From a virus: 64,000 nt of DNA. Below the pieces are notes generated by a model that searched no databases, was not told where the DNA came from, and was given only the letters and a program-made list of their open reading frames with translations. The stretch spans positions 128,001-192,000 of the IMG/VR virus record IMGVR_UViG_3300045988_154312; one strand, 5' to 3'. The position numbers were made by a program, and so were the translations under genes. Of the stretch, positions 25,501 through 55,474 are shown piece after piece (the stretch's first letter is position 1; each line of letters opens with the position of its first letter).

Positions 25501-25505
25501 AGAAC

Positions 25506-39367: not shown

Positions 39368-39420
39368 GGTTTAGTCTAGAGGAGCAGGGTTTGCTCTTCT
39401 AGGCTAAACCTTTATTTTTT
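39368..39420 (+). terminator. Long-stem intrinsic terminator
   Basis: 18-bp stem ggtttagtctagaggagc/gctcttctaggctaaacc (two G-T pairs), then tttatttttt. Confidence 0.7.
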
Positions 39421-39648
39421 CTTATGTTGAATATACATTTAGGTAATACTGTTGTTACAGCGTTAGCTAAATGTATATTTTTTTATAATTCGCGAAAAGC
39501 ATACCGCCTGAGTACGTATGGCGTAATTCGGGTGTCAGCTTTAGCGAAAGTCCATTTTTTTGGACACTTTTGGCAGGGGCTAATTTTTTTAGTGACTGCT
39601 TTTTTTTATCGGAACGATTACGTTTCCGATCGCCAAGAATTATTAAGG

Positions 39649-40443: not shown

Positions 40444-41524
40444 TGGTATCATATATATACGTTAGTATATATTAAGTATTTTCTGCCGTCGGTATTTTGT
40501 TAAAAGAGAGACTAGTATATGTAATAATAGCCGCTTAGGATATTATGGTTTATATATAATATGTTTTTAGTTAATGTTTTTACTGTACATATTATATGTA
40601 CAGGTATTAAAAACTTTTAGGGTGGGATATCTTATAATAATATTGAACGTCAGTGAAATGTTATTATAGATTTAAATCTTATATTAGATATAATTTTAAT
40701 GAGAGCTATTAATGTGAAGAATAGGGAGCGCCGCGAATCTATTCAGCTATTAAAATTCTTAGTCGACACGATAGTATAGTATGGTAGAGATCGTGTCGAT
40801 AGGTTACGAGTGCTAACGAGTTATATGTAGAATTCGTTATTAAGAATAGTGTTATCGATGTAGCTTGCGAAGAGAAATAGTATTCTTTAGAATTCGTAAC
40901 AATATATCTAATGCGTTTGTGTGTCTATCGATATATATCAAGAAAATATATACCGACGTGTGCGAATGGAGTTTACGAAGTGTGGCACGCAATCAATTTT
41001 TATATCTCGTAACGAAGCCGTTTACGGTTCGTATTAGTATTATATATAGCGAAGCGAACAATGTAAGCGGAATGTAACTATATAATATTTAATACGAATT
41101 ATACCAAAGTATTAGAAGTTAGTAAGCGTCTAATAAGTAGGTGGTTTTTTGTTTGGGATCCGCCGTTATCTTAGTATTTCATTTACTAGCTAAGGTATTT
41201 AAAAGTCCCTTGCGTTTATTTTAGTCGAGTTATTATTTAATATATATTATATATAATAATAACGAAGAGCCATTACTGTTAAGAATGGATAGTAGACGAA
41301 ATTGGGAACGGGCCCCAATAATAGTTATTAGATTTTTAATATAATAACGTTAATGGTTCGTCGTGTACGATCCTCTGCGAGTTGTTTATCTTCACAGCAG
41401 ATTAATTACTATTAAGAGTTTGGAGCATTTTTAAAATGGGACAACATTTTGTTAGTATTCTTTGTCTATATTATATATATAAAAAAAAGACCCCCATGGG
41501 GCCGTTATATATTGTTTTGTATCT

Positions 41525-41561
41525 GGAGCGGTGAAACTTCGTTTCACCGGTATATTACTCA
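41525..41561 (+). promoter_or_regulatory. U1: GGAGC-[9-bp stem, TTC loop]-GTATATTACTCA element
   Basis: cggtgaaac-ttc-gtttcaccg with invariant flanks. One of three tandem copies. Confidence 0.45.
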
Positions 41562-41684
41562 TGCTTGAGTAAGAGTTATTTAAAAAATAAAAAAATATGT
41601 CAGAAAATAAAAAAGACCCCGAAGGGCCGTTTTTATATAATTATTTTTTTAATGTTCAGCTGTCGCTATCAATAATAAATTATT

Positions 41685-41722
41685 GGAAGCGGTGTAACGT
41701 AGTTACACCGGTATATTACTCA
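41685..41722 (+). promoter_or_regulatory. U2: GGAAGC-[9-bp stem, GTA loop]-GTATATTACTCA element
   Basis: cggtgtaac-gta-gttacaccg. The stem differs from U1 by compensatory changes. Confidence 0.45.
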
Positions 41723-41846
41723 CTTTAGATGCTTAGTTGTCAAAAAATAAAAAAATATTTTTTATTTAATTATATATATAGCAAACAATAAAAAAAAACA
41801 GCCTTAGATTTTTATATCCAAGACTGTTTTGTGTGTGTAAATTTCA

Positions 41847-41881
41847 GGAGCGGTGAACTGCGTTCACCGGTATATTACTCA
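41847..41881 (+). promoter_or_regulatory. U3: GGAGC-[8-bp stem, TGC loop]-GTATATTACTCA element
   Basis: cggtgaac-tgc-gttcaccg. Confidence 0.45.
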
Positions 41882-41985
41882 TATTAGTATATCATTAATT
41901 AATTTTGTAAAAATAATTAAATATTCATTATTAATGCATAATTGAAAGTACGGATATTTTTAAGTAAAAAAAATACAAAAAATTA

Positions 41986-42011
41986 AAGTCAGATAATATC
42001 TGGCTTTTTTT
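41986..42011 (+). terminator. Intrinsic terminator-like hairpin
   Basis: aagtcagat-aat-atctggctt, then a T run. Confidence 0.5.
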
Positions 42012-42633
42012 AATTTTGGTGTCGCCTGCGGTATATATAGGAAACAATAAAACATAATATACAGAATATGTATATTTATGAATACGAGCTTTTTTCAAAA
42101 GCGTTCTTCGACCATAGCTTACTCCGAAAAGTTTAAATGAAACGTCGTAAGCGTAGTAGTGACGCGGGTTTTTAATAATTTTATGTATAAGATTATTTAG
42201 GGTTAGGAACGATCGATATAAAAATTGCTCCCTTAACAGTTCTTATTCATCTCTTATATATACTATATATATAATATAATAATATTTATTTTTTTAAATA
42301 GTCCGCCGTCTCCTCACGAGCGCCAACACCAGTTATTTATTGCTTTATATACTATATATATAGGTAAAGCTATGGCTTTGTTCGTGCAGAAGATACGGCT
42401 CTTGGACTATAGGTGATACTGACTATACAGTATGCTCCCTTGGGGGGTGGGGGGAGTCAGTAACACTCTCAAGTTAGTTATTTTTATCTAAAAACTAATA
42501 AAAATCGTTTATGGCTATTAAAATGATCATAAGTCCGCAACACTTTAAAATCTCCCTTTAACAGCTAAAAACTAGTATTTTTTAAAATATCAAGTTGCTT
42601 TTATTTGCTATATTTTAGCCTATTTTCATATTA

Positions 42634-42689
42634 GATGTATTTGGTCCGATGTATTTGGTCCGATGTATTTGGTCCGATGTATTTGGTCA
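42634..42689. repeat. 4 x 14-bp perfect tandem direct repeat (iteron-like)
   Basis: GATGTATTTGGTCC x3 plus GATGTATTTGGTCA, followed by ~250 bp of almost pure TATA-type DNA. Confidence 0.9.
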
Positions 42690-43015
42690 CATAATATATT
42701 TAATTAGCGTAGCGTATTACTATATATATCATTAATCTGTTATAGCAACTTTATTAGTACTTAATAGCTGTATATAGTCATATATATAGTTTATTGTTAT
42801 ATTATATATATGGTTTAATATATATTATTAGTATTAAGTTATATTATATATTGCTATACTATGTATATATAATAGTATTAGTATATATGTATTATGTTAT
42901 TATATATTGTATTAAGATATATAATTAAGAGAAACTATTAAATGGAAAGATGCGGGCGATTTTGTATATGGTATTTTATATCAAGTCGTTCACGGATCCG
43001 TATATGGATTTTTAA

Positions 43016-43204
43016 ATGTATTGTATTTTGTCGGAGGAAAATATTATTTTAATAATATCAGCAGTAATTATGTTTTTACTATATAAATTAGGCAATAAAT
43101 TATTTAAAGAGCACTATTATAACAGTCGATTAAAAACTATATATTTAATTTTATGTTTTATAATAGTATGCATATTAATTAGACTATTATATTTATATAT
43201 ATAA
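43016..43204 (+). CDS. Small hydrophobic protein (uncertain)
   Basis: 62-aa ORF with two hydrophobic stretches and no clear SD. Confidence 0.35.
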   Translation: MYCILSEENIILIISAVIMFLLYKLGNKLFKEHYYNSRLKTIYLILCFIIVCILIRLLYLYI

Positions 43205-43222
43205 GATTAATATTCTTTAGTG

Positions 43223-43243
43223 CGTGCTCCGCACCGAAATCTC
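43223..43243 (+). promoter_or_regulatory. Hairpin-TCC-GAAATCTC motif copy
   Basis: gtgc-TCC-gcac-c-GAAATCTC, 63 nt upstream of ATG 43287 (first YY-tail gene). Confidence 0.5.
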
Positions 43244-43286
43244 CCGTAGTCCTTTTTTGTTGTATAGGAGTTAATGAGCGTAGCGA

Positions 43287-43487
43287 ATGAATCAATATTT
43301 AGTCGATCAGATTGTCGACCATAGCGACTGGATACGGTATACGCGTCCAAGGAAGATGTGTTATTCTGACGATATAAGCAAGAAATATGATCTAGATAAT
43401 ATAATCGTAGCAATTAGCGAAAGTTATTATAAATATAGTGCTGAATTATATTTACAATATTATATGTATTTAATAGTAGCAGAATAA
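43287..43487 (+). CDS. YY-tail family small protein
   Basis: C-terminus ...YSAELYLQYYMYLIVAE. Confidence 0.55.
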   Translation: MNQYLVDQIVDHSDWIRYTRPRKMCYSDDISKKYDLDNIIVAISESYYKYSAELYLQYYMYLIVAE

Positions 43488-43503
43488 ATGGAGGAAACTA
43501 ATA

Positions 43504-43767
43504 ATGAAATATTTAATACAAGAAAAAGTTGTCGGCGATATTAATCTTGAAATCGAAGCTTCCGATATGGTTAAAGCTGTTAAATTAGCTAGAAAATATA
43601 TCGAAGATAATTATAAAGATATTTTTATCGACTACGATTGTTTCCAAGAGAAACAAGTGTTTGGTTGTTCTGATCGAGAATTTAATAAAGACAGTAAAGA
43701 AGGATTTATTATGATTATTCGTGAAGACAAAAAAACAATGAGTCATTTTGAAATAAAAGTTAAATAA
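43504..43767 (+). CDS. Hypothetical small protein
   Basis: SD GGAGGAAA. 87 aa. Confidence 0.65.
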   Translation: MKYLIQEKVVGDINLEIEASDMVKAVKLARKYIEDNYKDIFIDYDCFQEKQVFGCSDREFNKDSKEGFIMIIREDKKTMSHFEIKVK

Positions 43768-43774
43768 AGTCGTT

Positions 43775-43978
43775 ATGAATAAGAATGAATTAATCGATAA
43801 TATTATCGATGCGGCCTGGATAATAAAAACAAAATATCCAAAATATATGCCGTCCCGAAACTTTCATATAGTCGACGTTATTACAAAAATTACTGTATAT
43901 AGTAATGGTAGTCAAGAAATTAACGGTATGATTTATTATAGCTATTATTTATTTTTAGGACATTTAGATTATGAATAA
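43775..43978 (+). CDS. YY-tail family small protein
   Basis: C-terminus ...NGMIYYSYYLFLGHLDYE. Confidence 0.6.
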   Translation: MNKNELIDNIIDAAWIIKTKYPKYMPSRNFHIVDVITKITVYSNGSQEINGMIYYSYYLFLGHLDYE

Positions 43979-44174
43979 ATCAAAGTTTTTCAATGAATTG
44001 GTATATTATAATATCGATAAATGTAAGATAAATAAATATGAAAAATATAATGTCGTTTATAATACTGGTTATAGTATTCTTAGGAATTATATTATTTATC
44101 GTAATGGCGACGAAAAATATAGTGCAAACATATATGTTTATTATTATCTATATTTAAGTTTAGAACATATATAA
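43971..44174 (+). CDS. YY-tail family small protein
   Basis: C-terminus ...YSANIYVYYYLYLSLEHI. Overlaps upstream gene end. Confidence 0.6.
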   Translation: MNKSKFFNELVYYNIDKCKINKYEKYNVVYNTGYSILRNYIIYRNGDEKYSANIYVYYYLYLSLEHI

Positions 44175-44186
44175 AGGAGGGATTAT

Positions 44187-44414
44187 ATGGAATGTTATAC
44201 TATATCTAAAAGAGAAATATTTATATCAGAAGTCAGAAGAATGACATCTAACGTTATGTGCATTTCATATTTCCCCCATCGGAATATTGAGCCGGCATAC
44301 TTTAATTTAATGGAAGGAATGTCTTATGACGGCGTAAAAAAAGATCCTTTATTCTTATACGATTATTATATATATTTATCTCTTCTAGAATTAGGATATT
44401 ATAATGAACCATAA
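44187..44414 (+). CDS. YY-tail family small protein
   Basis: SD AAGGAGGG. C-terminus ...LFLYDYYIYLSLLELGYYNEP. Confidence 0.65.
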   Translation: MECYTISKREIFISEVRRMTSNVMCISYFPHRNIEPAYFNLMEGMSYDGVKKDPLFLYDYYIYLSLLELGYYNEP

Positions 44415-44622
44415 ATTAAATAATATAGTTAGTAGAGAAAATTCAAAATTGCCTAATAAGATTTATAATAAATATATAGCAAGGCCAGATATTCAAGGCG
44501 ACTTATTAGTATATTATGATCTCGTATATGAATATGTATCTAATGGTATTGCATTATATGATTATTATATATTTTTAAATTATGTAGAATTAGGATACGA
44601 TAATGGACTGCAAAATAAATAA
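44404..44622 (+). CDS. YY-tail family small protein
   Basis: ...LPNKIYNKYIARP...IALYDYYIFLNYVELGYDNG. Confidence 0.6.
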   Translation: MNHKLNNIVSRENSKLPNKIYNKYIARPDIQGDLLVYYDLVYEYVSNGIALYDYYIFLNYVELGYDNGLQNK

Positions 44623-44797
44623 TATAATTTTTAATCATAATTTATTGTTACCTGATGAACTTTATAATAAATATATAATAAAACCAAATTTTTATAGTCG
44701 TATGGTAGTTTATTTCGGTCTTAGATATAAATACATATCTAATTCAAAAGAACTATATGACTATTATATATATTTATCATTAACAGGAACATTATGA
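44603..44797 (+). CDS. YY-tail family small protein
   Basis: ...LPDELYNKYIIKPNFY...KELYDYYIYLSLTGTL. Confidence 0.6.
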   Translation: MDCKINNIIFNHNLLLPDELYNKYIIKPNFYSRMVVYFGLRYKYISNSKELYDYYIYLSLTGTL

Positions 44798-45003
44798 AAG
44801 AATATCATTTATCAGAAGTATTAAGAATAACTTATCTTGTATACACTAAATATAATCGTAAGTATGATATAGATCTTAATTTTTTAATGTGTAGAAAATG
44901 AAATAATATTATCGTATATATAAATGAATATAACGATACGTATTCTGGTAACTTATATTATGATTATTATATATATTTAAGTTTAATGGATAACAGTATA
45001 TGA
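44794..45003 (+). pseudogene. YY-tail family member interrupted by in-frame TGA (close paralog of 52103..52312)
   Basis: MKEYHLSEVLRITYLVYTKYNRKYDIDLNFLMCRK*NNIIVYINEYNDTYSGNLYYDYYIYLSLMDNSI. TGA at 44899-44901 where the paralog has TTA (Leu). Confidence 0.6.
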
Positions 45004-45197
45004 ATTGGAAAATGAAGTATTATCTAATAAATTTTGAATATGATATAGTGAGCAATTCATTTAGATGTAATACACAAAAATATATACTAGTTAATAATTC
45101 AAAATTTTTATATAATATAAATCTTGATGACGATACAAGGAATAGTGGATTTTATTATTATTACTATATATACTTAATGTTTATTGACAAGAGCTAA
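45000..45197 (+). CDS. YY-tail family small protein
   Basis: C-terminus ...NSGFYYYYYIYLMFIDKS. Confidence 0.6.
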   Translation: MNWKMKYYLINFEYDIVSNSFRCNTQKYILVNNSKFLYNINLDDDTRNSGFYYYYYIYLMFIDKS

Positions 45198-45209
45198 TAA
45201 GGAGAATAT

Positions 45210-45572
45210 ATGAAATTTGATCGATGTTTATTAAACGACAACACATATCTTTTCTTAGGCTATGATAAAGGACAAGAAGTATATTGCTTGCGAAATATTA
45301 TATGCATTAGAATTAAAGGAGTTTTAATGGTCGACGCTAGTTTGTTAAGAGTAAGAAAACGCAGCGCCGATAGTTTTGATATTAAGATGACATTACATAT
45401 TAATAGTAATAATGAAGTGTATAGATCATCCTATATATCGTTAAAACATCCTAATAAAAGTATTGTTATTAGAGATGACGACAGTCATCGTAAGGAATAT
45501 ATATTAGCATTAAGAAACTATATTATGGAATATAACAATATAGAACTATTAAGGAGTGAAAATATGTGTTAA
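45210..45572 (+). CDS. Hypothetical small protein
   Basis: SD AAGGAGAA. 120 aa. Confidence 0.65.
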   Translation: MKFDRCLLNDNTYLFLGYDKGQEVYCLRNIICIRIKGVLMVDASLLRVRKRSADSFDIKMTLHINSNNEVYRSSYISLKHPNKSIVIRDDDSHRKEYILALRNYIMEYNNIELLRSENMC

Positions 45573-45886
45573 ACTTAATTTCAAAGTATCAAGACGATAT
45601 TAAAAACTTTATTATTAATAAATATAGTCTAGGTAAAAAAAAATATAATTTCGATTATTTTTGTGAATCAGTTTTTAATTTAAAAGAACTTGATCTTTAC
45701 TATAAAAATGCTTGTCATTGTAAAATTATAAAATATAGTTGGCATCATGATAAAGAAGATCCATATCCTAAAAATATTGTTATACAATTTGAAAATAAAG
45801 AAACATTAAAAGATGTATCTCTTGATGATTTATTTTTAACAAAAAGTTCGTTAAAACAATACAATTGGTTTTTTAAAGAGAATTAA
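45566..45886 (+). CDS. Hypothetical protein, paralog of 50086..50538 C-terminal domain
   Basis: GTG start after AAGGAG. Shared CKI(I/V)KY.W...LFLT..SL..Y.WFFKE. Confidence 0.6.
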   Translation: MLNLISKYQDDIKNFIINKYSLGKKKYNFDYFCESVFNLKELDLYYKNACHCKIIKYSWHHDKEDPYPKNIVIQFENKETLKDVSLDDLFLTKSSLKQYNWFFKEN

Positions 45887-45901
45887 TAAGAAAGAACGCA
45901 C

Positions 45902-46231
45902 ATGAAACATTTATATTGTAAAGAAAAATTCGACAAAGAAAAATATGATCATATATTAAAATTAAAAGTATTAATATCTCAATGTAATTGCGGTAGTATG
46001 CTTCTATATCTTAATAAAATAATGGTTAAATTAGAAGCAATTGAACGCATCGAGTTCGATAAAAATAATGAATATCAATTAACATTATATATTCATTATC
46101 AAAAAAACAATAAAGATCTTTATGAAATCATCGAAGTAAAATTTGAAGATTATGAAGAATTCGAAGAATATAAAGAAATGATCGGCGACATTTTCTGTTA
46201 TACATTTATTAACGAAGAAGCGACTTATTAA
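45902..46231 (+). CDS. Hypothetical small protein
   Basis: 109-aa ORF in co-directional array. Confidence 0.6.
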   Translation: MKHLYCKEKFDKEKYDHILKLKVLISQCNCGSMLLYLNKIMVKLEAIERIEFDKNNEYQLTLYIHYQKNNKDLYEIIEVKFEDYEEFEEYKEMIGDIFCYTFINEEATY

Positions 46232-46242
46232 GGAGTAAAATT

Positions 46243-46557
46243 ATGGTACTAGAATTCTTAAGCGAAACCGATGCTCTTAATGCTTTTACATTTCATGGAC
46301 AAGATGTATTTAAAAGATTAAGAGAGCATCCATTATTCGTAGAAATTGAAAAAGAATATACACCGATAAAAGGCGAATCTATATTTAGTATCGGCTATGA
46401 TTCTGGACTAGAAAATCGTTATGTTACACGATTTATTAAAATAAAACGATATAAGAATTATGTGCGATTAATTCCAGAAAACGATACATATAATTGGATC
46501 GCAAAAGAATTAATCGATTTATTTATTTCCGATATGAAGTATAATGTTATTGTATAA
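46243..46557 (+). CDS. Hypothetical small protein
   Basis: SD AAGGAG. Confidence 0.65.
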   Translation: MVLEFLSETDALNAFTFHGQDVFKRLREHPLFVEIEKEYTPIKGESIFSIGYDSGLENRYVTRFIKIKRYKNYVRLIPENDTYNWIAKELIDLFISDMKYNVIV

Positions 46558-46569
46558 GGAGTAAAAACT

Positions 46570-46779
46570 ATGAAAAATTACGACCATGTTATAAAAAACA
46601 AAATATTACCTGGCGGCAAGCTTATATCTGATTATCAGATTATGACAGGAAACGGCTTGAACGAAGTGGAGTTGGAATATATCGACGAAGTCGGTATTTT
46701 GCCAGTAGCCCCAAAAGATCAATGGATTATCCCGAAAGGCTACGTAGTTGATTTAGATGGCTGCGTTAAAAAAGCATGA
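46570..46779 (+). CDS. Hypothetical small protein
   Basis: SD AAGGAG. Confidence 0.65.
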   Translation: MKNYDHVIKNKILPGGKLISDYQIMTGNGLNEVELEYIDEVGILPVAPKDQWIIPKGYVVDLDGCVKKA

Positions 46780-47084
46780 GAGATAAAAGTTACGCAATAG
46801 TATTTTATCACTATGATAAGAATAATAATTTTCATTACGGCGTTATTTCTTGTGAATACGGTTTTATGCGTCAATTATATTCTGCGTATTATACATATAT
46901 GACAGCTAGTATTGACTGTATGATTTCGATAATCGATGCTAACGAATTAAAGTATTTAGAAGAAATGGAACTAGCTTATGACGATCCAAATTATTATGCT
47001 AATGAAATACAAATGGCTATCGAAGAATGTAGCGTAACAGAATTGATTAAAAAATTAAATAAAAGAAGGGAAACTATACTATGA
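46776..47084 (+). CDS. Hypothetical small protein
   Basis: ATGA overlap with upstream gene. Confidence 0.6.
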   Translation: MRDKSYAIVFYHYDKNNNFHYGVISCEYGFMRQLYSAYYTYMTASIDCMISIIDANELKYLEEMELAYDDPNYYANEIQMAIEECSVTELIKKLNKRRETIL

Positions 47085-47302
47085 AAATATTATTAGCAGG
47101 ATTAATTATTGCTTTATTTACAGTATCAGCTATTGCCGCAAAAATATTAGGTATCGCAACAGTAATTGCTTTTGTATTAGCGTTAATCGGTTTATTCGAT
47201 GTACAAATGAGTACGGCTATTAATTTATTATTATTAACAGTCGGCGCCGGAACTTTTGCAATTATTTTAATGGCTATCGGTAAAGTATTAGCATTTAGAT
47301 AA
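47081..47302 (+). CDS. Small two-TM membrane protein
   Basis: ATGA overlap. Almost entirely hydrophobic (LLAGLIIALFTVSAIAA...LLLLTVGAGTFAIILMAIG). Confidence 0.6.
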   Translation: MKILLAGLIIALFTVSAIAAKILGIATVIAFVLALIGLFDVQMSTAINLLLLTVGAGTFAIILMAIGKVLAFR

Positions 47303-47303
47303 T

Positions 47304-47480
47304 ATGAATAAAAAACTATATCATGATATAACAAAACATATATATAGTATAAGTCTTAATAGAGATTTCGATAGATTTTTAATAGTACTTAATCTTAATA
47401 TAGATTTAACTAAAATATATGATAGCGAGATATACTATACTTTATATAAATATTATCTATATATAATGATTAAGATATAA
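47304..47480 (+). CDS. YY-tail family small protein (58 aa, below ORF-track cutoff)
   Basis: MNKKLYHDITKH...DSEIYYTLYKYYLYIMIKI. Confidence 0.5.
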   Translation: MNKKLYHDITKHIYSISLNRDFDRFLIVLNLNIDLTKIYDSEIYYTLYKYYLYIMIKI

Positions 47481-47490
47481 AAGGTTTTGT

Positions 47491-47688
47491 ATGAAAAATA
47501 GATTAGAACAGATCTTAGTAAATATTGAATACAATATGAGAAATGACTATTACTGCTATAGTATTATTAAAAAATATCGTATAAATAATAATATTAGATT
47601 TAATCTTGGCGACGAAGATAGCTTTTTATTTGTCGATGAAAATTATTACTACTATTATATATATTTATGTATATTTAATATATCTTAG
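47491..47688 (+). CDS. YY-tail family small protein
   Basis: C-terminus ...DENYYYYYIYLCIFNIS. Confidence 0.6.
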   Translation: MKNRLEQILVNIEYNMRNDYYCYSIIKKYRINNNIRFNLGDEDSFLFVDENYYYYYIYLCIFNIS

Positions 47689-47715
47689 TATTAATATATA
47701 TTTAACGAGGTGATT

Positions 47716-48330
47716 ATGAAAAGTTCAAACGATACGAGTTTAGATTACTCGTTAAAACATATGCTAAATAAAAACGACTATAAGATTGTGTATTATGGTC
47801 AACATATTATGAAAAATGACGATTGTTATTTGTATGACTATCATACAGAAATAGAGCATAAAAATAGTCCTTATCTTATTAGTATTTTTCGAGAAGGTAA
47901 GGCGTCGCGTTTTTACGAAGATAATAAAGATTATTATTTCGTAAAAATCGTAAATCAATTAAATAACGATCAAATATCTTATCAAAGAATTAGCGAACGT
48001 TCTGAAGACGTAATTAAATATATCGTTAATAAATTATATGTTTTTAAAAATAATCAAGATATAGATTTATTAAAAGAATTTAAAGATCGATATACTAATA
48101 TATTTGTTACAGAAGACAATAAAATATGTTTATTATTTGTTGCCAACAATAAATTCACAAATTTTATTATTAAATATGAAGACAAAGAATATAAATTTAT
48201 TATTTCGTTAGACGGTTGTGATAGAGCCGAAAGAACTGCTAATAATAGAATAGAATTAATTAATCGTATCGAAGAACGATTAATGGAATTTGATGATATT
48301 ACAGAAGGCATTAGGAGCGATATAAAATAA
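47716..48330 (+). CDS. Hypothetical protein
   Basis: ATG 47716 after GAGGTG (the GTG at 47710 is an alternative start). 204 aa. Confidence 0.6.
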   Translation: MKSSNDTSLDYSLKHMLNKNDYKIVYYGQHIMKNDDCYLYDYHTEIEHKNSPYLISIFREGKASRFYEDNKDYYFVKIVNQLNNDQISYQRISERSEDVIKYIVNKLYVFKNNQDIDLLKEFKDRYTNIFVTEDNKICLLFVANNKFTNFIIKYEDKEYKFIISLDGCDRAERTANNRIELINRIEERLMEFDDITEGIRSDIK

Positions 48331-48659
48331 TGGCTATTGAATTTAAATTTGATGAAGATATAAAGTTAATATATCAAGATTTTACGTACGATATATTTAT
48401 TGACGATCATTGCACAAAATATGAAATATATGATAGCGGAAATGCCGTAACTGGATATATTCGTTTATTTATATTAAATAAAGAAACTAATTATATTAAA
48501 ATTCTTAACGATATTTTTATCGAAATTGATCGTAATAATAATTTTATCTATATAGATCGAGATAATATTAGAGATGAATTATATCTTGTCCAATTATTAG
48601 AATTGAACGAAATTAAAAAATCTATATATAACTATATCGACAATATATCAGGATATTAA
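48330..48659 (+). CDS. Hypothetical small protein
   Basis: TAATG overlap with upstream gene. Confidence 0.6.
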   Translation: MAIEFKFDEDIKLIYQDFTYDIFIDDHCTKYEIYDSGNAVTGYIRLFILNKETNYIKILNDIFIEIDRNNNFIYIDRDNIRDELYLVQLLELNEIKKSIYNYIDNISGY

Positions 48660-48667
48660 TATGAAAA

Positions 48668-48874
48668 ATGAACGATAAAATAAGAAAAATAATTTTTAAT
48701 TATAATCTACAAATGCCTTGTGAACTTTATAATAAGTATATAATACGCTCAAATATGTATAATCGTATGATAATTTGTTTTAGTGCTAAACATAATTGTT
48801 CATCTAAAACAAAAGAATTATATGATTATTATATATTTTTAAATTGTATGGATATAATTAGACGAAATTACTAA
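48668..48874 (+). CDS. YY-tail family small protein
   Basis: ...MPCELYNKYIIRSNMY...KELYDYYIFLNCMDII. Close paralog of the 44603 gene. Confidence 0.6.
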   Translation: MNDKIRKIIFNYNLQMPCELYNKYIIRSNMYNRMIICFSAKHNCSSKTKELYDYYIFLNCMDIIRRNY

Positions 48875-48889
48875 TAAGGAGGCGATCAT

Positions 48890-49222
48890 ATGAACTTCGA
48901 ATATAATAAAGAGAAATACATGTATAAAAATATTAAAGACGAATTACCATTCGATGATGATAGTTATATGTGGCGAAGTGATGAATACGGGCTATATGGC
49001 GTTGAATTTTATCCGGTAGAAGCACCAGGATCAAACGGTAAATTAGCTCAATGCTTCGGAAAGAATTTAGCTTTAGAAAGTTATGCATCTTACGATTCTA
49101 TGTATTTAACAGAGAAATCTGCAATCGACTTCGAAATCGATAAGATTATTTTTAAAAATATCACGAATCAAAAAGAACTTAATTATATGTATGAATTATT
49201 AATGTTAAAACAAAATGAATAG
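48890..49222 (+). CDS. Hypothetical small protein
   Basis: SD AAGGAGG. Confidence 0.65.
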   Translation: MNFEYNKEKYMYKNIKDELPFDDDSYMWRSDEYGLYGVEFYPVEAPGSNGKLAQCFGKNLALESYASYDSMYLTEKSAIDFEIDKIIFKNITNQKELNYMYELLMLKQNE

Positions 49223-49418
49223 TCAAAAAATAAAACTTTTAAGAAATACTTGTGAAGGCCATATTTTAAATTTGGATAATCATATATATATAAAATATGC
49301 ATTATCGACAAACATTGAAAAAGATGGACTTGACCGTATTGAATCTGACGATGTTCTTTTTATGGGTCTTAGTTTTATATATAATTATTACATATATTTA
49401 AGTTATGTAGAATTATAA
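49215..49418 (+). CDS. YY-tail family small protein
   Basis: C-terminus ...LSFIYNYYIYLSYVEL. Confidence 0.6.
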   Translation: MNSQKIKLLRNTCEGHILNLDNHIYIKYALSTNIEKDGLDRIESDDVLFMGLSFIYNYYIYLSYVEL

Positions 49419-49432
49419 AAAGGATTAATAAT

Positions 49433-49762
49433 ATGTATAATAGTAATTGTTATTTAAATTTTAGGACTGATTTATTTGCCGACACTTTTTTTAACGTAAT
49501 TCAAAAACATCATGACCTAGAAATTCGTTGTGAACAAGCATTATGGGTACCGTTCGATTATTTATTGTATAAGAATACTATTACAATAAAATATAAAAAT
49601 CAATATAACGAAGAACTAACATTAATTCTCAATAAAGATAACGAAATAATAAAAGCAACGACCGTCGTTAAAGAAAAATATCCAGAAGACGGCACCGATT
49701 CGTTTTATTTTATCAATGCATTTCAAGAAGTAATGTTCAACGATTATTTTTTAAAGGATTAA
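49433..49762 (+). CDS. Hypothetical small protein (paralog of next gene)
   Basis: Ends ...MFNDYFLKD. The next gene ends ...FYNDYFIGE. Confidence 0.6.
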   Translation: MYNSNCYLNFRTDLFADTFFNVIQKHHDLEIRCEQALWVPFDYLLYKNTITIKYKNQYNEELTLILNKDNEIIKATTVVKEKYPEDGTDSFYFINAFQEVMFNDYFLKD

Positions 49763-49766
49763 TATT

Positions 49767-50084
49767 ATGTATATAAGATTTAAAACAAAAAAATTCGCTA
49801 CTGAATTTATTGATGCAGTAAAAAAGAGCGCAGGAAAATCATTCTATTTTAAAGAATTCGGTACATGGGATTTTTATTATATCAACGAAAAAGAAAACGG
49901 AATCGTAATATCATATCGAAATAGAAAAACAGATTATATTATAATAATAAATATTTTTATTGATAAGTATATGAAAAATCAAATAATTTTTAATACGTAC
50001 GAAGGATATGATTCTATATATACTCCGTTATTTTATAATGAATATAAACAATTATTTTATAACGATTATTTTATCGGTGAATAA
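49767..50084 (+). CDS. Hypothetical small protein (paralog of previous gene)
   Basis: Similar length and shared N- and C-terminal motifs. Confidence 0.6.
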   Translation: MYIRFKTKKFATEFIDAVKKSAGKSFYFKEFGTWDFYYINEKENGIVISYRNRKTDYIIIINIFIDKYMKNQIIFNTYEGYDSIYTPLFYNEYKQLFYNDYFIGE

Positions 50085-50085
50085 A

Positions 50086-50538
50086 ATGGATGAACACATA
50101 ATAGAAAATAAAAACTTTTGGGATATTATGTTTAATGAATTAGATAAGACTACCAATGAAGATTGGAAAAAATTTGTCGAAAAGCATGACGAGGAAAGGA
50201 ATAAAAAAATGGATAAACAATTATTTTTAAGATATCGAGATCATTTTGATAATCTTATCAGAGAAAAATATCTTCTCGACAACAAAACATATGACTTCGA
50301 TAACTACGATATCGAAGATTTTGAATTTGAAAAATTAGATTTTTATTATGACGACGGCCGTGAATGTAAAATCGTAAAATACGATTGGGACGGCGAAGGA
50401 AAATGGTCTTATATTAATAACATTACAATTCGTTTTTCTAACGGCGAAATAATGGAGCACGTAAGCGGATATCATCTTTTCTTAACAGTAGAATCATTAG
50501 AAAAATATGGCTGGTTCTTTAAAGAAGACGACTATTAA
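50086..50538 (+). CDS. Hypothetical protein, C-terminal domain paralogous to 45566 gene
   Basis: In-frame ATG 50086 (MDEHIIENKNF...) directly after the upstream stop. Confidence 0.6.
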   Translation: MDEHIIENKNFWDIMFNELDKTTNEDWKKFVEKHDEERNKKMDKQLFLRYRDHFDNLIREKYLLDNKTYDFDNYDIEDFEFEKLDFYYDDGRECKIVKYDWDGEGKWSYINNITIRFSNGEIMEHVSGYHLFLTVESLEKYGWFFKEDDY

Positions 50539-50552
50539 TAGTATTTTGTCAA

Positions 50553-50720
50553 ATGAACGATAAACTAATAAGAATGATAAATAAGTTTCATAGGCACCAT
50601 TGTGAATCATATACTGGATATTATCGAACATATAGTATTAGATTTAATGTATCTCCTAACTATGTTAAATATATGCCCGATATATTATTTCATTATTATG
50701 AGTATTATACTTATATATAA
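50553..50720 (+). CDS. YY-tail family small protein (55 aa, below ORF-track cutoff)
   Basis: MNDKLIRMINKF...MPDILFHYYEYYTYI. Confidence 0.45.
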   Translation: MNDKLIRMINKFHRHHCESYTGYYRTYSIRFNVSPNYVKYMPDILFHYYEYYTYI

Positions 50721-50731
50721 AGGAGAGATTT

Positions 50732-50944
50732 ATGAGATATAAAGTCGTATTTACTAAATTTAAAGGATTGAATCATTTCGAAGAAACCGAAAGTGCCAGC
50801 GACATAATCAAAGAATTCGTTAAACAAAACAATGCTTTAAAAATAAGAAATATTTTTACCGAAGATAATATTACCTTTGGTAAAGTTCAAGATCTCGATG
50901 GTTTTGATTACGGTATGATTATTATTAAAGAAGTTGCATCATGA
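50732..50944 (+). CDS. Hypothetical small protein
   Basis: SD AAAGGAGAG. Confidence 0.65.
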   Translation: MRYKVVFTKFKGLNHFEETESASDIIKEFVKQNNALKIRNIFTEDNITFGKVQDLDGFDYGMIIIKEVAS

Positions 50945-51126
50945 TTAAAATAATAAATCAAAAGTTAGTCGATGCCGTTTTTAAATACGATGATTATGAG
51001 CCTAACGATCTTGTTCAATATTTAACGTGCGAAAATTTCGAAGAAAAATATTATACATATATGTATACTAATGGTGAATATTATTACTATTTTTATCTAT
51101 CAATAGGATTAATTTGTAATCTATAA
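50941..51126 (+). CDS. YY-tail family small protein
   Basis: ATGA overlap. C-terminus ...NGEYYYYFYLSIGLICNL. Confidence 0.6.
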   Translation: MIKIINQKLVDAVFKYDDYEPNDLVQYLTCENFEEKYYTYMYTNGEYYYYFYLSIGLICNL

Positions 51127-51148
51127 AAGCGAACATATATCCGCTTTT
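51125..51148 (+). terminator. Weak terminator-like hairpin
   Basis: aaaagcg/cgctttt stem with a short T run. Confidence 0.35.
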
Positions 51149-51185
51149 AAGAATTTATGCAGTTTAATAATAATAGCAGGATTTT

Positions 51186-51214
51186 TTGTAAAAAAAAGTA
51201 TTTTATGATATAAT
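51186..51214 (+). promoter_or_regulatory. Sigma-A/sigma-70-like promoter with extended -10
   Basis: TTGTAA, 17 nt (ending TGA), then TATAAT. Lies in the only sizeable gap of the small-gene array. Confidence 0.5.
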
Positions 51215-51247
51215 AAAAGGTTATGATATACTAATAAGGAGAATAAT

Positions 51248-51478
51248 ATGACTGAAAAAGAAGCAATAATTATCGAAGAAATATATTTAATAGAAAATTA
51301 ATTAAAAGAAAAAACATTAGATTATTTTCTCGATAAATATTATGGCGGTAAAACCTTAGAAAAATTACAACCATTTCAACGAGAAAAAATATTAAAATGG
51401 ATGCAGTCATGTCTCGAAAACGAAGAGATGGCTCTCGATAATATTAGTAGTTGGGCTTTAGAACATGGATATTTCTAA
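51248..51478 (+). pseudogene. Small gene interrupted by in-frame TAA at codon 18
   Basis: SD AAGGAGAA. MTEKEAIIIEEIYLIEN*LKEKTLDYFLDKYYGGKTLEKLQPFQREKILKWMQSCLENEEMALDNISSWALEHGYF. TAA at 51299-51301. Confidence 0.5.
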
Positions 51479-51481
51479 ATC

Positions 51482-51703
51482 ATGACTGATAAATTTATAG
51501 AAAAAGTATACATTACGTTACAAATTAAAATATCGTTAGATATATTTAATCAGGATCTCGAGCGTTTTTTAATGGAAACAAATGCCAGAAAATTATATCG
51601 TATATATATTTTAACTAATAAAAATCAGAAATATGATGATTACTATGGCTATTATCTATACTTATTACTATGTACCGATACTTTATTGGAAGGAATAATA
51701 TAA
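51482..51703 (+). CDS. YY-tail family small protein
   Basis: ...KYDDYYGYYLYLLLCTDTLLEGII. Confidence 0.55.
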   Translation: MTDKFIEKVYITLQIKISLDIFNQDLERFLMETNARKLYRIYILTNKNQKYDDYYGYYLYLLLCTDTLLEGII

Positions 51704-51903
51704 TGTATACTGATAAGCTAGTAAAATATATGTCTTTAAAAAACGATCAGTATTATAAAGACGGTAATACTAAATATCTTTCGCTTAATAATTTAAATAA
51801 TCCTAAAGCGATATTTTCATATAAAGCGTATCAGGATCAAGAAGGAATAGCATATAGTGCCAATATATACTACTGGTATTATCTATGCTTAATATTAATA
51901 TGA
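51703..51903 (+). CDS. YY-tail family small protein
   Basis: TAATG overlap start (MYTDKLVKYM...). C-terminus ...YSANIYYWYYLCLILI. Confidence 0.55.
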   Translation: MYTDKLVKYMSLKNDQYYKDGNTKYLSLNNLNNPKAIFSYKAYQDQEGIAYSANIYYWYYLCLILI

Positions 51904-52106
51904 ATGGAAAAACAAATGAATTTAAGTTTTCATTAAAATTATTTGATCGTAAAATAAAAAGTAATAGCATATATATAAAATTAACACCAACAATTAATTG
52001 TCGAACAGTATATATTTTATTTATTAAAAATATAAAATATCGTAAATTATATTATTATTATATATATTATACATATTTATCATTATTAGATGTAGACACA
52101 CTATGA
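51900..52106 (+). CDS. YY-tail family small protein
   Basis: ATGA overlap start (MNGKTNEF...). C-terminus ...RKLYYYYIYYTYLSLLDVDTL. Confidence 0.55.
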   Translation: MNGKTNEFKFSLKLFDRKIKSNSIYIKLTPTINCRTVYILFIKNIKYRKLYYYYIYYTYLSLLDVDTL

Positions 52107-52312
52107 AAGAATATCATTTATCAGAAATATTAAGGATATCTTATCTTGTATATACTAGATATAATCGTAAGTACGATATAGATCTTAATCTTTTAATATG
52201 TAGAAAATTAAACAATACTGTCGTATATATAAATGAATATAACGACAAATATTCTGGTAACTTATATTATGATTATTATATATTTTTATTGTTGTTAGGT
52301 AATATCGAATGA
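52103..52312 (+). CDS. YY-tail family small protein (intact paralog of pseudogene 44794)
   Basis: C-terminus ...YSGNLYYDYYIFLLLLGNIE. Confidence 0.6.
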   Translation: MKEYHLSEILRISYLVYTRYNRKYDIDLNLLICRKLNNTVVYINEYNDKYSGNLYYDYYIFLLLLGNIE

Positions 52313-52503
52313 CTAATAAAATGATAAAAGAATTAAATATATATATGAATACAATACAGGATAGTAGGCATTTAAGTATGCGATATATTAGAATACTTGA
52401 TAATATATCGATGCTACCAACATATTTTAAATTTAATCGTGGCCCATGTCAGTATTTATCTTGGTATTTTTTATACTATTTTTATAATCAGGAATTAAAA
52501 TGA
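52309..52503 (+). CDS. YY-tail family small protein (divergent)
   Basis: C-terminus ...YLSWYFLYYFYNQELK. Confidence 0.5.
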   Translation: MTNKMIKELNIYMNTIQDSRHLSMRYIRILDNISMLPTYFKFNRGPCQYLSWYFLYYFYNQELK

Positions 52504-52715
52504 TTGCGAACAATAAACTCGACGGCGTATTAGAATATTTTACAGAAGACATGTGTTATCATGACGAAATAGAGCCTGGTAGCGAACCATTTTTAATGTT
52601 ATATAATACACATGTTATTTTCGATTTAGATGACTGTCCAAATTTATATTATTACTATTATAGTTTTTATATATATGTTATGTTAATTAAGGAAGAAGGT
52701 CTATATGAAATTTAA
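52500..52715 (+). CDS. YY-tail family small protein
   Basis: ...CPNLYYYYYSFYIYVMLIKEEGLYEI. Confidence 0.55.
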   Translation: MIANNKLDGVLEYFTEDMCYHDEIEPGSEPFLMLYNTHVIFDLDDCPNLYYYYYSFYIYVMLIKEEGLYEI

Positions 52716-52917
52716 AGTATTACTATTAACAGTTCTGTTAGGTGTATCCGTATTAAGTATTAATGCATACGATTCCGATAAAAAAGAGTGTAATCAATAT
52801 TTAGACTGTAAATATTATCAAAATGTGAATATTATTAACTTACATTATGAAAATGACGGAAAATCTGTTAAATTGGTACAACCTAATAACAGTTTTCATT
52901 ATAAAAAAACAAAATGA
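52705..52917 (+). CDS. Small secreted protein (signal peptide)
   Basis: MKFKVLLLTVLLGVSVLSINA-YDSDKKE: classic N-terminal signal sequence. Confidence 0.6.
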   Translation: MKFKVLLLTVLLGVSVLSINAYDSDKKECNQYLDCKYYQNVNIINLHYENDGKSVKLVQPNNSFHYKKTK

Positions 52918-53138
52918 TCAGCAAACAAAATAGAGCTCTGTCGATAACTTATCGAGGTATAAAATTATACGAGAATTTTAATAAATATTCTATTGTTAAT
53001 AATTTAAAAATTCACGACAAATTAACAAATATATGTGTATATAATGACAATGAACGCATGTTTAGTGCTAATATGTATTATAGTTATTATGTTATATTAC
53101 ATTTAATTGACGAAAAATTTAAAAGGAGAAGGACATGA
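52914..53138 (+). CDS. YY-tail family small protein
   Basis: ...FSANMYYSYYVILHLIDEKFKRRRT. Confidence 0.6.
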   Translation: MISKQNRALSITYRGIKLYENFNKYSIVNNLKIHDKLTNICVYNDNERMFSANMYYSYYVILHLIDEKFKRRRT

Positions 53139-53602
53139 ATTGTGAGAAGAATTTGAAAATTAAGTCTTCGGGCTTAACAAAGTTGTTGCGATCTATGAAT
53201 TACAATACGTCTGTCGTCGTTATTAAAACAGATTACGGTTATAAAACAACGTTAATGGCTTTACGTGACGATGGTAATTTTTTACAATTAACAGTATGCT
53301 TAAATTATCATGGTAGCATTGTCGATACTATACATATTCGTATGAATAATACTAAGAAAGATTTAAAATACGAAGATTTTATTTATTTTAAAGCTAACGA
53401 TCCGTATACTGAACGTAAGGACTTATCCGAAGCTATTGCTAATTTAATTATTAATACGAATAGAAAAGTCGATATGTTTTATACTTTTTCATTAAAAAAT
53501 ATTAAAACAGCCTTATTAGACCCAGTATTAATTAGACAATATTTATCTGTGCAACGACAAATGAATAGAATTACTAATACTATTAATGAAGTAAAGATTT
53601 AA
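53135..53602 (+). CDS. Hypothetical protein
   Basis: SD AAAAGGAGAAGG. 155 aa. Confidence 0.65.
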   Translation: MNCEKNLKIKSSGLTKLLRSMNYNTSVVVIKTDYGYKTTLMALRDDGNFLQLTVCLNYHGSIVDTIHIRMNNTKKDLKYEDFIYFKANDPYTERKDLSEAIANLIINTNRKVDMFYTFSLKNIKTALLDPVLIRQYLSVQRQMNRITNTINEVKI

Positions 53603-53604
53603 AA

Positions 53605-53865
53605 ATGGTTTATAATATTATTAAATATAGCAGACATAATAACGATACATATGTATATATACAAAAAATGCCTGGCATTTATAATCGAAATCTAAGTTTA
53701 TATTTTGCATATATATATAGTATATTCGACTTTAAGTTTCGATATAGTATTGTTAAAGATATAGATTTTCAAGCATATGTTAATTTTAGATTATTAGATG
53801 AAAGTATTAATCCTAAAAATGTCGACATCTTAAATATATTAAAGAGTAAAAATTATGAAATATAA
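53605..53865 (+). CDS. Hypothetical small protein (paralog of next gene)
   Basis: Shares layout with 53855 gene (...KMP...SLY(F/I)(A/T)Y...(D/T)...(Q/E)A(Y/L)V...). Confidence 0.55.
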   Translation: MVYNIIKYSRHNNDTYVYIQKMPGIYNRNLSLYFAYIYSIFDFKFRYSIVKDIDFQAYVNFRLLDESINPKNVDILNILKSKNYEI

Positions 53866-54139
53866 AATATTATTAAGAAAGATGCCAGTCGATGAATATG
53901 CCTATGAATTATGTTACGATGCTTTTAATAGTAATTTTAATAGTTCTTTATATATAACATATTTGTTGTTTAATATGTATCCAAAAAGTAGTGTATATTT
54001 AGTTAGCAATACAAAATTAGAGGCATTAGTGTCAATACCTACCCCTGATTATATATTTATGGAAGAGTTAGAAAAACATAATTTATTAAGTATTATAGAA
54101 AGAAATAAAGATGAATCTATTAAGCGAGACAGAATATAA
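53855..54139 (+). CDS. Hypothetical small protein (paralog of previous gene)
   Basis: Overlaps upstream gene end by 11 nt. Confidence 0.55.
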   Translation: MKYKILLRKMPVDEYAYELCYDAFNSNFNSSLYITYLLFNMYPKSSVYLVSNTKLEALVSIPTPDYIFMEELEKHNLLSIIERNKDESIKRDRI

Positions 54140-54476
54140 ATTAAAAGAGCTTGGCCTCACATTAGACGATATTCAGTTTGTGATGTGTACGGAATCTGAA
54201 TACGGTAGCGACTTTATTTTTATGAACAAAGATACGTTTATTGGAAAGGCTACCCTCGTTAATTACGATAATGGATATGGATCTCAAGAGATTAAAAATA
54301 ACTTAACAATTTATACTAAGACTCATATCATTTATCGATTTGAATACGACGGAGCAGAATGCTGGAAATATATTCCGACAATTACTGGCCTTGACGAATT
54401 CTTACAGGATGAAAAAAACTGGAAAGAATTTAAGCTTGAATCAAAGGATTATTATGAAAAACAAATTCCGTTCTAG
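54111..54476 (+). CDS. Hypothetical protein
   Basis: 121-aa ORF with less biased composition. Confidence 0.6.
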   Translation: MNLLSETEYKLKELGLTLDDIQFVMCTESEYGSDFIFMNKDTFIGKATLVNYDNGYGSQEIKNNLTIYTKTHIIYRFEYDGAECWKYIPTITGLDEFLQDEKNWKEFKLESKDYYEKQIPF

Positions 54477-54667
54477 AATTAATAAATGGATTAAAACTAA
54501 AATCTCATCAGTATTGCTTCCATATTATACATGGATAGTATTTGAAAAGCAGGAAAAAATTGGTGAAAAAAATTTAAATTATACCACATTTATTTCTTTT
54601 TCTTAGAAAAATATTTATAATTATAATAAAGAAGAGAAATAATTGTGGATTTTTTTATAGGAAAAAT

Positions 54668-54970
54668 ATGAGTGAAACATATATAATTTCGTCATATGCA
54701 AAAAATGATAGGGATCGATTATGTCGGTTTAAAACATATAAAGCTGATAATATGTTCGTTCGAGCATACCATCTAGCATATTATGTATATATTAGTTATG
54801 CGTATGAGAAATATCGTATTTGTATATATCCAGAAGGAACGATAGGCAATCGATACGATATAACGTTCGAGCAGATTGCTGAAATGTACGATATTGTTCA
54901 TTGTATTAAAAATAAAGAGTATAGCAAAAAAATGAATTCTAAAAAACGTAAGTGGTTGAAAATATTTTAG
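54668..54970 (+). CDS. Hypothetical small protein (internal YY-like motif AYHLAYYVYISYAYE)
   Basis: 100-aa ORF following a ~190-nt gap. Confidence 0.55.
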   Translation: MSETYIISSYAKNDRDRLCRFKTYKADNMFVRAYHLAYYVYISYAYEKYRICIYPEGTIGNRYDITFEQIAEMYDIVHCIKNKEYSKKMNSKKRKWLKIF

Positions 54971-54980
54971 GAGGTATTTA

Positions 54981-55283
54981 ATGGGTTATACGTTAAAACA
55001 TAGTATTGAAAAAACTGCCAAAATTATTAATAATCTTGATATTAATCAGTTTAATGGCGATCGTCAAAACTATTATATTGAGTCAGTAGAGTTTGTTAAC
55101 GAAGGTATATTCCCATCAATTCGTTTTATTATTAGAAATGACCAGACTGGTGCAATTGATAAACGTTGCGGTATGTTGCGCAAAATTCCGAATAGTAACG
55201 AAGTCGAATATCGTGACGGAACAGTTAAAATGTATGACGGTATCATCTGGACATTTTTAAAAGAAGCAGGTATAACATTATGA
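54981..55283 (+). CDS. Hypothetical small protein
   Basis: SD TAGGAGG. Confidence 0.65.
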   Translation: MGYTLKHSIEKTAKIINNLDINQFNGDRQNYYIESVEFVNEGIFPSIRFIIRNDQTGAIDKRCGMLRKIPNSNEVEYRDGTVKMYDGIIWTFLKEAGITL

Positions 55284-55474
55284 ATCATAAAAATTATTAT
55301 GATATCTGTGATTCAGCTCAAAAAATTTATGATAATAATCCTGCATTTTTTCCAGGAAATAATATTAAGAATGATGCAAAAACTAAAATGAGAGAATTCA
55401 ATGTTATTGGTGACGAATTTAATGCTTTATTCTACTATGAATATATTATGTATTTAATCGGAAAAAATTTATAA
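55280..55474 (+). CDS. YY-tail family small protein
   Basis: ATGA overlap. C-terminus ...FNALFYYEYIMYLIGKNL. Confidence 0.6.
   Translation: MNHKNYYDICDSAQKIYDNNPAFFPGNNIKNDAKTKMREFNVIGDEFNALFYYEYIMYLIGKNL

Follow-up and report, generated by a model that had tools for sequence, protein, structure and literature searches.

Dense clusters of small early genes are known from phages, as in the SPO1 host-takeover module, the T5 pre-early genes and the small early genes of T4. Tandem arrays of immunity proteins occur in polymorphic toxin systems, and multigene families are found in large eukaryotic DNA viruses, as in the MGF families of African swine fever virus and the gene expansions of poxviruses. 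In Bacillus phage G, ~35 copies of a small zinc ribbon were described and called unprecedented; their function was proposed from context only, as specific transcription factors or DNA/RNA binders (Iyer et al. 2021, PMC7824862). Here we describe a family of very small proteins with a Tyr-rich C-terminal motif, encoded by 22 gene copies at 43287-55474 of a 64-kb stretch of viral DNA (positions 128,001 to 192,000 of IMG/VR record IMGVR_UViG_3300045988_154312), referred to as the window. The DNA comes from an uncultured, myovirus-like phage of ~230 kb.

The Tyr family resembles the phage G expansion in that one jumbo-phage genome carries a very small domain in tens of copies. The first-pass annotation of the window was justified in calling the 22 copies a large expansion for a phage. 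Unlike the phage G ribbons, the Tyr family has no conserved Cys or His, has a predicted alpha/beta fold with a Tyr-rich helix, and belongs to another, uncultured clade. With the SPO1, T5 and T4 modules the array shares dense, co-directional and overlapping genes, proteins below 100 amino acids (aa), the lack of database matches and the location in an AT-rich accessory region. However, those modules consist mostly of unrelated single genes, whereas the Tyr array consists of ~22 paralogues of one predicted fold. Like the immunity arrays, it contains small soluble tandem paralogues with a conserved core and variable surfaces and charge, subject to gain, loss and recombination. Unlike them, it showed no match to the Pfam immunity families (Imm, SUKH-type), the scanned neighbours contained no toxin domains, and it lies in a lytic-type phage genome instead of a bacterial toxin locus. 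The birth and death of virus-specific paralogues in a variable region, with copy numbers that differ between strains, recall the MGF and poxvirus families, but the proteins are far smaller, the virus is bacterial, and no known host pathway is connected with them. Overall, the phenomenon has precedents, both as an expansion of tiny proteins and as an array of small genes, while neither the family nor its predicted fold has one. A literature search found no description of the family.

An ATG was present at all 22 starts proposed by the first-pass annotation. The open reading frames (ORFs) encoded 55-75 aa, except for that at 44794, which encoded 35 aa. Thus the array contained 21 intact copies and one copy broken by an in-frame change from TTA to TGA. 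Every family gene was on the + strand, neighbours were closely spaced and often overlapped by 4, 8, 11 or 20 nt, and the genes formed runs at 43775-45197 and 51482-52715, as a co-directional and overlapping arrangement had been claimed. For two genes, the first-ATG calls (51670 and 51885) differed from the starts of the first-pass annotation (51703 and 51900). The latter were preferred because the N-termini of orthologues agreed with them (P0006 and the related loci L004-L009).

The array region had the lowest G+C content of the window (23-27%), so AT-rich codons (TAT, TTA, ATA) could in principle have produced the tail by themselves, and the ORFs could be non-homologous or no genes at all. 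The HMMER bias terms of the members were also large, up to 24 bits. Composition-corrected pairwise BLAST connected just 11 members, as two clusters, and a profile seeded with these 11 did not raise the remaining members above shuffled decoys (3,000 decoys). These two results indicated that the family is visible only as a whole. The 11-seed profile was replaced by leave-one-out (LOO) tests, in which a profile built from the other 20 members was scored against 500 shuffles of the member's own sequence. In these tests all 21 members outscored sequences of the same composition, with z values of 3.5-13.5. Twenty of them exceeded all 500 shuffles, and for the weakest, 52309, 2 of 500 shuffles reached its score. 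A six-frame scan with the family profile covered 832 stop-to-stop segments of at least 30 aa from the whole window. Apart from the 21 members and both halves of the pseudogene at 44794 it matched nothing, and the next segment, in any frame, reached 8.0 bits. The pseudogene halves were outside the training set and scored 17.1 and 35.9 bits. The genes neighbouring the array were equally AT-rich and Tyr-rich, yet they scored no higher than 8.0 bits.

The motif was also specific to frame and strand. The DNA pattern for YYxYY occurred 10 times in frame and never out of frame in the family genes. Between 42 and 64 kb the + strand carried 11 occurrences and the - strand two, where a second-order Markov model predicted 0.9, so the count was ~12 times the expectation. 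Of the Tyr codons, TAC accounted for 10% within the tail and 7% outside it. The motif had synonymous sites that were free to change (synonymous divergence, dS, 0.70), while nonsynonymous divergence (dN) was lowest there. In addition, orthologues were kept across many phage genomes, and the structure models were confident and concordant. The LOO tests, the six-frame scan, the frame and strand counts and the dN/dS of the motif refuted a composition artefact, which we regard as vanishingly improbable. The ORFs belong to a real paralogous family. The earlier claim of a genuine, unrecognised family therefore held, including against shuffles matched in composition, and no match to it was found in the curated databases searched (Pfam, PHROGs, NCBIfam, PADLOC).

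Conservation was analysed in a 68-position profile of 102 members, drawn from the window and from seven related loci. The tail had been put forward as the shared feature of these proteins. Its motif, Y54-Y55-x-Y57-Y58-[LIM]-Y60-L61, was indeed conserved, but conservation was not confined to the tail and spanned the whole protein. Other conserved positions were a hydrophobic residue at 9 (I9), [KR][YF] at 22-23, [LI] at 36 and [VI][YF] at 41-42, and Asn occupied position 28 in 96 of the 102 members. The remaining positions were highly variable, and the identity between paralogues was ~17-30%. At five motif positions Tyr outnumbered Phe by 410 to 11 (counts that are not phylogenetically independent), while the Y/(Y+F) fraction of neighbouring proteins was 0.55. 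Tyr and Phe codons are equally AT-rich. This preference suggests that the hydroxyl groups matter and that the helix is perhaps also a contact surface.

The AlphaFold2 (AF2) model of member 43775, computed from a 76-sequence alignment, had a predicted local distance difference test score (pLDDT) of 87 and a predicted template modelling score (pTM) of 0.71. Its topology comprised a helix at residues 3-20, short helices at 26-29 and 33-38, a β-hairpin at 40-43/48-50 and a helix at 52-66. The model of member 52914 (pLDDT 86, pTM 0.70) had a matching topology at 25% sequence identity. Three BFVD models of paralogues from Myoviridae sp. ctJ2i1 superposed on the first model with template modelling (TM) scores of 0.66-0.77, and a fourth with 0.46. 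According to these models, the Tyr motif forms the C-terminal helix of a compact soluble domain and not a membrane tail, and the family would consist of small cytoplasmic proteins of ~65 residues.

Between orthologues, dN/dS was 0.09-0.64 (0.33 when pooled), and the reading frame was kept in eight loci. The orthologues are under purifying selection. The block that encodes the Tyr helix had a dN/dS of 0.18, with the highest dS (0.70) and the lowest dN (0.125), while the other three blocks had values of ~0.4. High dS together with low dN implied that the constraint on the Tyr helix acts on the protein. We also considered whether the tail carries a signal at the level of DNA, for example the promoter or ribosome-binding site of the next gene, and rejected this since synonymous divergence was highest there. 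The recent paralogues 44404, 44603 and 48668 are relaxed, with dN/dS values of 0.64-1.2 from few sites. Thus the diversifying selection suggested earlier was weakly supported: these three genes fit it, while the orthologues do not.

The array was mosaic between relatives. P0098 was a chimera whose body and tail came from two different paralogues, with the junction exactly at the YYIYL motif. A second chimera, at 6972-7220 of L006, joined an N-terminal half of the 45000 type to the C-terminal 40 aa of the unrelated 48330-type neighbour. These natural chimeras suggest recombination at a conserved coding stretch. The family has evolved by birth and death, with long-term retention of diverged copies and with gene loss, fusion, deletions and crossovers.

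The broken copy at 44794-45003 is a full-length pseudogene, a recent copy of the 52103 type, with an in-frame TGA at 44899-44901. Its two halves lay in one reading frame and aligned to profile positions 1-31 and 32-62. The homologous codon was TTA in the paralogue 52103 and in the intact L003 orthologue. Compared with L003, the pseudogene had a dS of 0.12 and a dN/dS of 0.24, and this small divergence indicated that the inactivation was recent, or possibly a sequencing error. The nucleotide identity between 44794-45003 and 52103 was ~90% as judged by eye from the alignment, and BLAST of L003 against 52065-52288 of the window gave 88% identity. Recoding of the TGA was rejected, as most local genes end in TGA (ATGA overlaps) and the homologous codon was TTA.

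A profile search of 5.8 billion proteins gave 79 matches, all of 64-94 aa, unnamed and without a Pfam domain, on contigs of up to ~237 kb. HMMER, run exhaustively against 1.84 billion cluster representatives (50% identity), returned only 21 clusters, one of which (P0096) looked like a repetitive false positive. Third-party records at NCBI label the family proteins 'hypothetical protein'. Among 50,697 GenBank phage records, no match was found by megablast with the array and with 26-40 kb, or by tblastn with two members. Related loci were gathered with a single-member query; the whole-family alignment had no sufficiently conserved stretch. The eight loci L001 and L003-L009 were syntenic, with 9-17 family copies each, all on one strand. 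Clustering gave ~30 orthogroups in the eight loci, of which ~10 keep their order between phages. The family was found only in one clade of uncultured phages of ~200-238 kb. In clusters at 90% identity, the DNA polymerase of the clade was represented by 470 sequences and the amidase by 1579, and judged by these sizes the clade appears to be common in public metagenome data. Phages rarely carry large expansions of a single small protein, and this one is old, maintained by selection and clade-wide.

Searches of Pfam and PHROGs with 10 window members gave no match below E 0.04, and with 55 diverse members no family at E ≤ 0.01. NCBIfam and PADLOC, searched with all 21 members, gave isolated single matches only (E ≥ 0.0085), and the best match of the family profile among PDB sequences had an E value of 0.2. 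No significant match was found to anti-defence families as represented in Pfam, PHROGs, PDB and BFVD; a PHROG anti-restriction match at E 0.092 was non-significant. An Aca-type regulator, sought as a helix-turn-helix (HTH) gene, was not found among the scanned neighbours.

The interpretation that we favour, at even chance, is that the family provides a conserved scaffold with diversified surfaces, whose paralogues bind different intracellular targets. The phage would make these proteins from a polycistronic array of accessory genes, and each paralogue would bind its own host or competitor target. Such binding might serve host takeover, or it might neutralise defence or toxin proteins. The roles suggested in the first-pass annotation, namely host takeover, anti-defence and superinfection exclusion, are plausible. 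The paralogues may also use the Tyr helix as a shared contact surface, either to self-associate or to bind a common partner, as the strong preference for Tyr over Phe suggests. Several points weigh against this interpretation. The dN/dS values below 1 between orthologues indicated no ongoing arms race at the resolution available. The phage may have an RNA polymerase of its own, which leaves more than one promoter class possible for the array. The gene at 29221-33690 (+) encodes a 1489-aa protein with a match to Pfam RdRP (PF05183) at residues 558-706, a DYDTD motif (DxDxD-type) within 'GGSDYDTDSY' and a C-terminal YpsA/SLOG domain after the RdRP match. These sequence features make it a candidate for a single-subunit RNA polymerase of the YonO/crAss type with a fused SLOG domain. 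A sigma-70 promoter scan found 157 sites against 158.6 expected and was uninformative in such AT-rich DNA. Foldseek searches of PDB with the two models gave best E values of 1.6 and 4.3 (TM ≤ 0.36), but the power of Foldseek is low for domains of ~65 residues, so a fold relative may escape. Finally, the burial of the Tyr helix would follow only from the predicted topology and the conservation. A more specific form of the scaffold interpretation is possible, and we put it forward tentatively. The family might have a new fold and act as a diversifiable binder in which the Tyr helix docks or oligomerises and the variable N-terminal helix and hairpin recognise different host targets, from defence or from housekeeping functions. 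The array would then be a phage-encoded repertoire of inhibitors or adaptors that is resized by recombination at the motif.

If the proteins instead bound nucleic acids, as regulators or architectural proteins with exposed tyrosines that stack on bases, the phage G expansion would be the closest reported precedent (PMC7824862). The basic members (several have isoelectric points, pI, of 8.6-9.7), the strict preference for Tyr over Phe, and the 4-kb repeat-rich non-coding region with iterated GCGAAGCGAGCG motifs that adjoins the array would all suit such a role. However, pI values across the members range from 4.1 to 9.7 and net charges from -12 to +7.5, and half of the members are acidic. There was no conserved basic patch, as all conserved positions except one K/R and one N were hydrophobic or aromatic. 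HTH, winged-helix, ribbon-helix-helix and zinc-ribbon domains were matched neither in Pfam nor by Foldseek with the two models against PDB, and helices 2 and 3 were just 4-6 residues long in both AF2 models. A zinc ribbon found no support either, as Cys and His were not among the commonest residues at any conserved profile position. Nucleic-acid binding therefore appears unlikely. Self-assembly or association with the virion was weighed as well. The Tyr helices would form homo- or hetero-oligomers (internal or ejected, decoration or scaffold proteins), and translational coupling would set the stoichiometry. Many of the genes are in fact coupled by ATGA-type overlaps, the C-terminal helix is conserved as hydrophobic or aromatic nearly all round, with only profile positions 56 and 62 variable, and Tyr rather than Phe was selected. 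The location of the array is at odds with such a role, since the tail and baseplate genes are at 9.9-25 kb, apart from the array, which is surrounded by genes without a family match instead of a structural module. Copy number and gene content also differed between close relatives, which is unusual for stoichiometric structural parts, and the fold was confidently predicted as a monomer (pTM 0.7). We consider a structural role improbable.

The first-pass annotation had offered the tail as a membrane-inserting element, and a membrane-acting family could function in superinfection exclusion, as holin- or antiholin-like proteins or in lysis control. The tail is hydrophobic and aromatic, and true membrane or secreted proteins, as read from their translations, are encoded nearby at 43016-43204, 47081-47302 and 52705-52917. 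Nevertheless, the hydrophobic stretch covers only ~12 residues. A membrane segment was taken to require ~19 residues with a mean Kyte-Doolittle value above ~1.6, or a signal peptide. By Kyte-Doolittle hydropathy no membrane-spanning segment was found in any of the 22 proteins: the maximal 19-residue mean was -0.13 to 1.28, and the grand average of hydropathy was negative in all. The N-termini were polar, with no signal peptide visible. Moreover, the models predicted that the motif is a helix and packs into a globular domain, with a pLDDT of ~90. Membrane insertion was thus not borne out, and we regard a membrane-acting role as very improbable.

The ~30 orthogroups built on one 65-residue scaffold offer a compact, well-defined start for the study of jumbo-phage genes that lack annotation. 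If the conserved scaffold with diversified surfaces yields target-specific inhibitors, the family could point to the host pathways or defence systems that such phages have to neutralise. A scaffold with so much natural sequence variation might also be of interest for protein engineering. If the proteins are structural or regulatory, the family would still be new, though of narrower interest.

The array opens with 43287-43487 (66 aa, pI 4.9; LOO z 4.8, profile score 35.6 bits), whose orthologues in L004, L005 and L007 had 83-89% aa identity and dN/dS values of 0.25-0.38. The first run begins with 43775-43978 (67 aa, z 11.8), the subject of the first structure model, with orthologues in six loci (dN/dS 0.15-0.64). 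It continues with 43971-44174 (67 aa, z 7.0), with orthologues in L001, L003, L004, L006, L007 and L009, and with 44187-44414 (75 aa, z 8.0), which is preceded by a strong Shine-Dalgarno sequence (AAAGGAGG). The orthologues of the latter were P0009, P0016, P0030 and P0046, and its dN/dS against L001 was 0.38. The next two genes, 44404-44622 (72 aa, z 8.1) and 44603-44797 (64 aa, z 13.0), belong to an LPxxxYNKYI subgroup together with 48668-48874 (68 aa, z 13.5). In BLAST, 44404 matched 44603 at E 2.5e-16 and 44603 matched 48668 at E 9e-20, and 44603 was 98% identical to P0001. After the pseudogene, the run closes with 45000-45197 (65 aa, z 7.8), whose L001 orthologue was 74% identical (dN/dS 0.33).

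Between the runs, 47304-47480 (58 aa, z 4.8) had orthologues of 55-60% identity in L004, L005 and L006. For 47491-47688 (65 aa, z 5.7, 43.9 bits) no orthologue of at least 45% identity was found in the fetched loci. A gene similar to 49215-49418 (67 aa, z 6.7) was present at 15694-15924 of L001. The shortest member, 50553-50720 (55 aa, z 5.3, 46.9 bits), stops right after the Tyr motif. Orthologues of 50941-51126 (61 aa, pI 4.2, z 4.7) were found in five loci, with 79-84% identity and dN/dS values of 0.18-0.33.

The second run opens with 51482-51703 (73 aa, z 7.6), with orthologues in five loci (dN/dS 0.21-0.39), followed by 51703-51903 (66 aa, z 5.3, dN/dS 0.31-0.51), one of the two members with a start backed by orthologue N-termini. 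The other, 51900-52106 (68 aa, pI 9.7, z 5.4), was identical to P0006, with the same start. It is followed by 52103-52312 (69 aa, z 8.6), the intact paralogue of the pseudogene. The most divergent member, 52309-52503 (64 aa, z 3.5), has the degenerate motif SWYFLYYFY and, in the alignment, a close relative in P0024. The run ends with 52500-52715 (71 aa, z 4.5), which has a net charge of -12 and orthologues in four loci (dN/dS 0.09-0.18). Beyond it lie 52914-53138 (74 aa, pI 9.7, z 11.0), the subject of the second structure model, and 55280-55474 (64 aa, z 6.8, dN/dS 0.12-0.22) at the end of the array, with 158 members in its 90% cluster.

The array lies within a 22-kb block of co-directional, overlapping genes, and a Pfam scan of 20 array neighbours gave no match. 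Two further paralogue pairs were noted in the block. The products of 45566-45886 and 50008-50538 were 43% identical over 103 aa (E 2e-25), and those of the adjacent genes 49433-49762 and 49767-50084 were 25% identical (E 3e-4). Duplication in the block therefore goes beyond the Tyr family. The sole sizeable gap inside the array, 51126-51482, separates the two runs and contains a hairpin (AAAGCG...CGCTTTT). After the hairpin, a promoter-like site with an extended -10 element (TTGTAA-17-TATAAT) is located at 51186-51214. Downstream of this site the gap contains two tiny ORFs (~17 and ~45 aa), of which the first has a good Shine-Dalgarno sequence.

Three related contigs end at the equivalent of 42.3-42.8 kb of the window. 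A location of the array at a physical genome end was not upheld, since three other related contigs read through the supposed end. Directly upstream of the array, the region 39200-43280 is ORF-poor and repeat-rich and is ~80% conserved in relatives. It contains ~10 copies of the GCGAAGCGAGCG-type motif, three direct repeats of ~160 bp at 41520-41913 that all include a GGTGxAAC...GTTxCACC hairpin, four perfect tandem copies of a 14-bp unit at 42634-42688, and several terminator-like hairpins on the - strand. This region may serve as an origin, act in packaging or encode several clustered small RNAs. Within it, 41289-41459 (+) gave a full-length match (model positions 1-159 of 159) to the OTKONC RNA of Rfam (RF03053), with 138.5 bits (E 4e-23), just below the gathering score of 141.4. 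A literature search found no description of this RNA.

Elsewhere the window encodes a DnaE-type polymerase, a RecJ-like protein, baseplate and tail-fibre proteins and an amidase, while a search for tRNAs found none. The polymerase was 31-35% identical to polymerases of Firmicutes phages. Homologues of the amidase were confined to the same phage clade, and a scan of genome contigs with the amidase gave no match. The gene 23744-25054 (+) encodes a 436-aa protein whose residues 281-401 were 31% identical to the product of 25051-25500 (-), an ORF directly downstream, at E 6e-11. This pair is bracketed by a 77-nt inverted repeat (24548-24624 and 25460-25536, 75% complementary). The layout resembles an invertible alternative tail-fibre tip; an invertase was not identified. 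We also noted three related neighbouring genes starting at 5346, 6156 and 7013 (5346-7906), which encode proteins of 265-297 aa, and the proteins encoded from 16928 and 18066 (16928-20912) had their N-terminal ~160 aa in common. The 1279-aa (9932-13771) and 710-aa (21525-23657) proteins shared C-terminal regions of ~36 aa that were 50% identical and matched phrog_20787.

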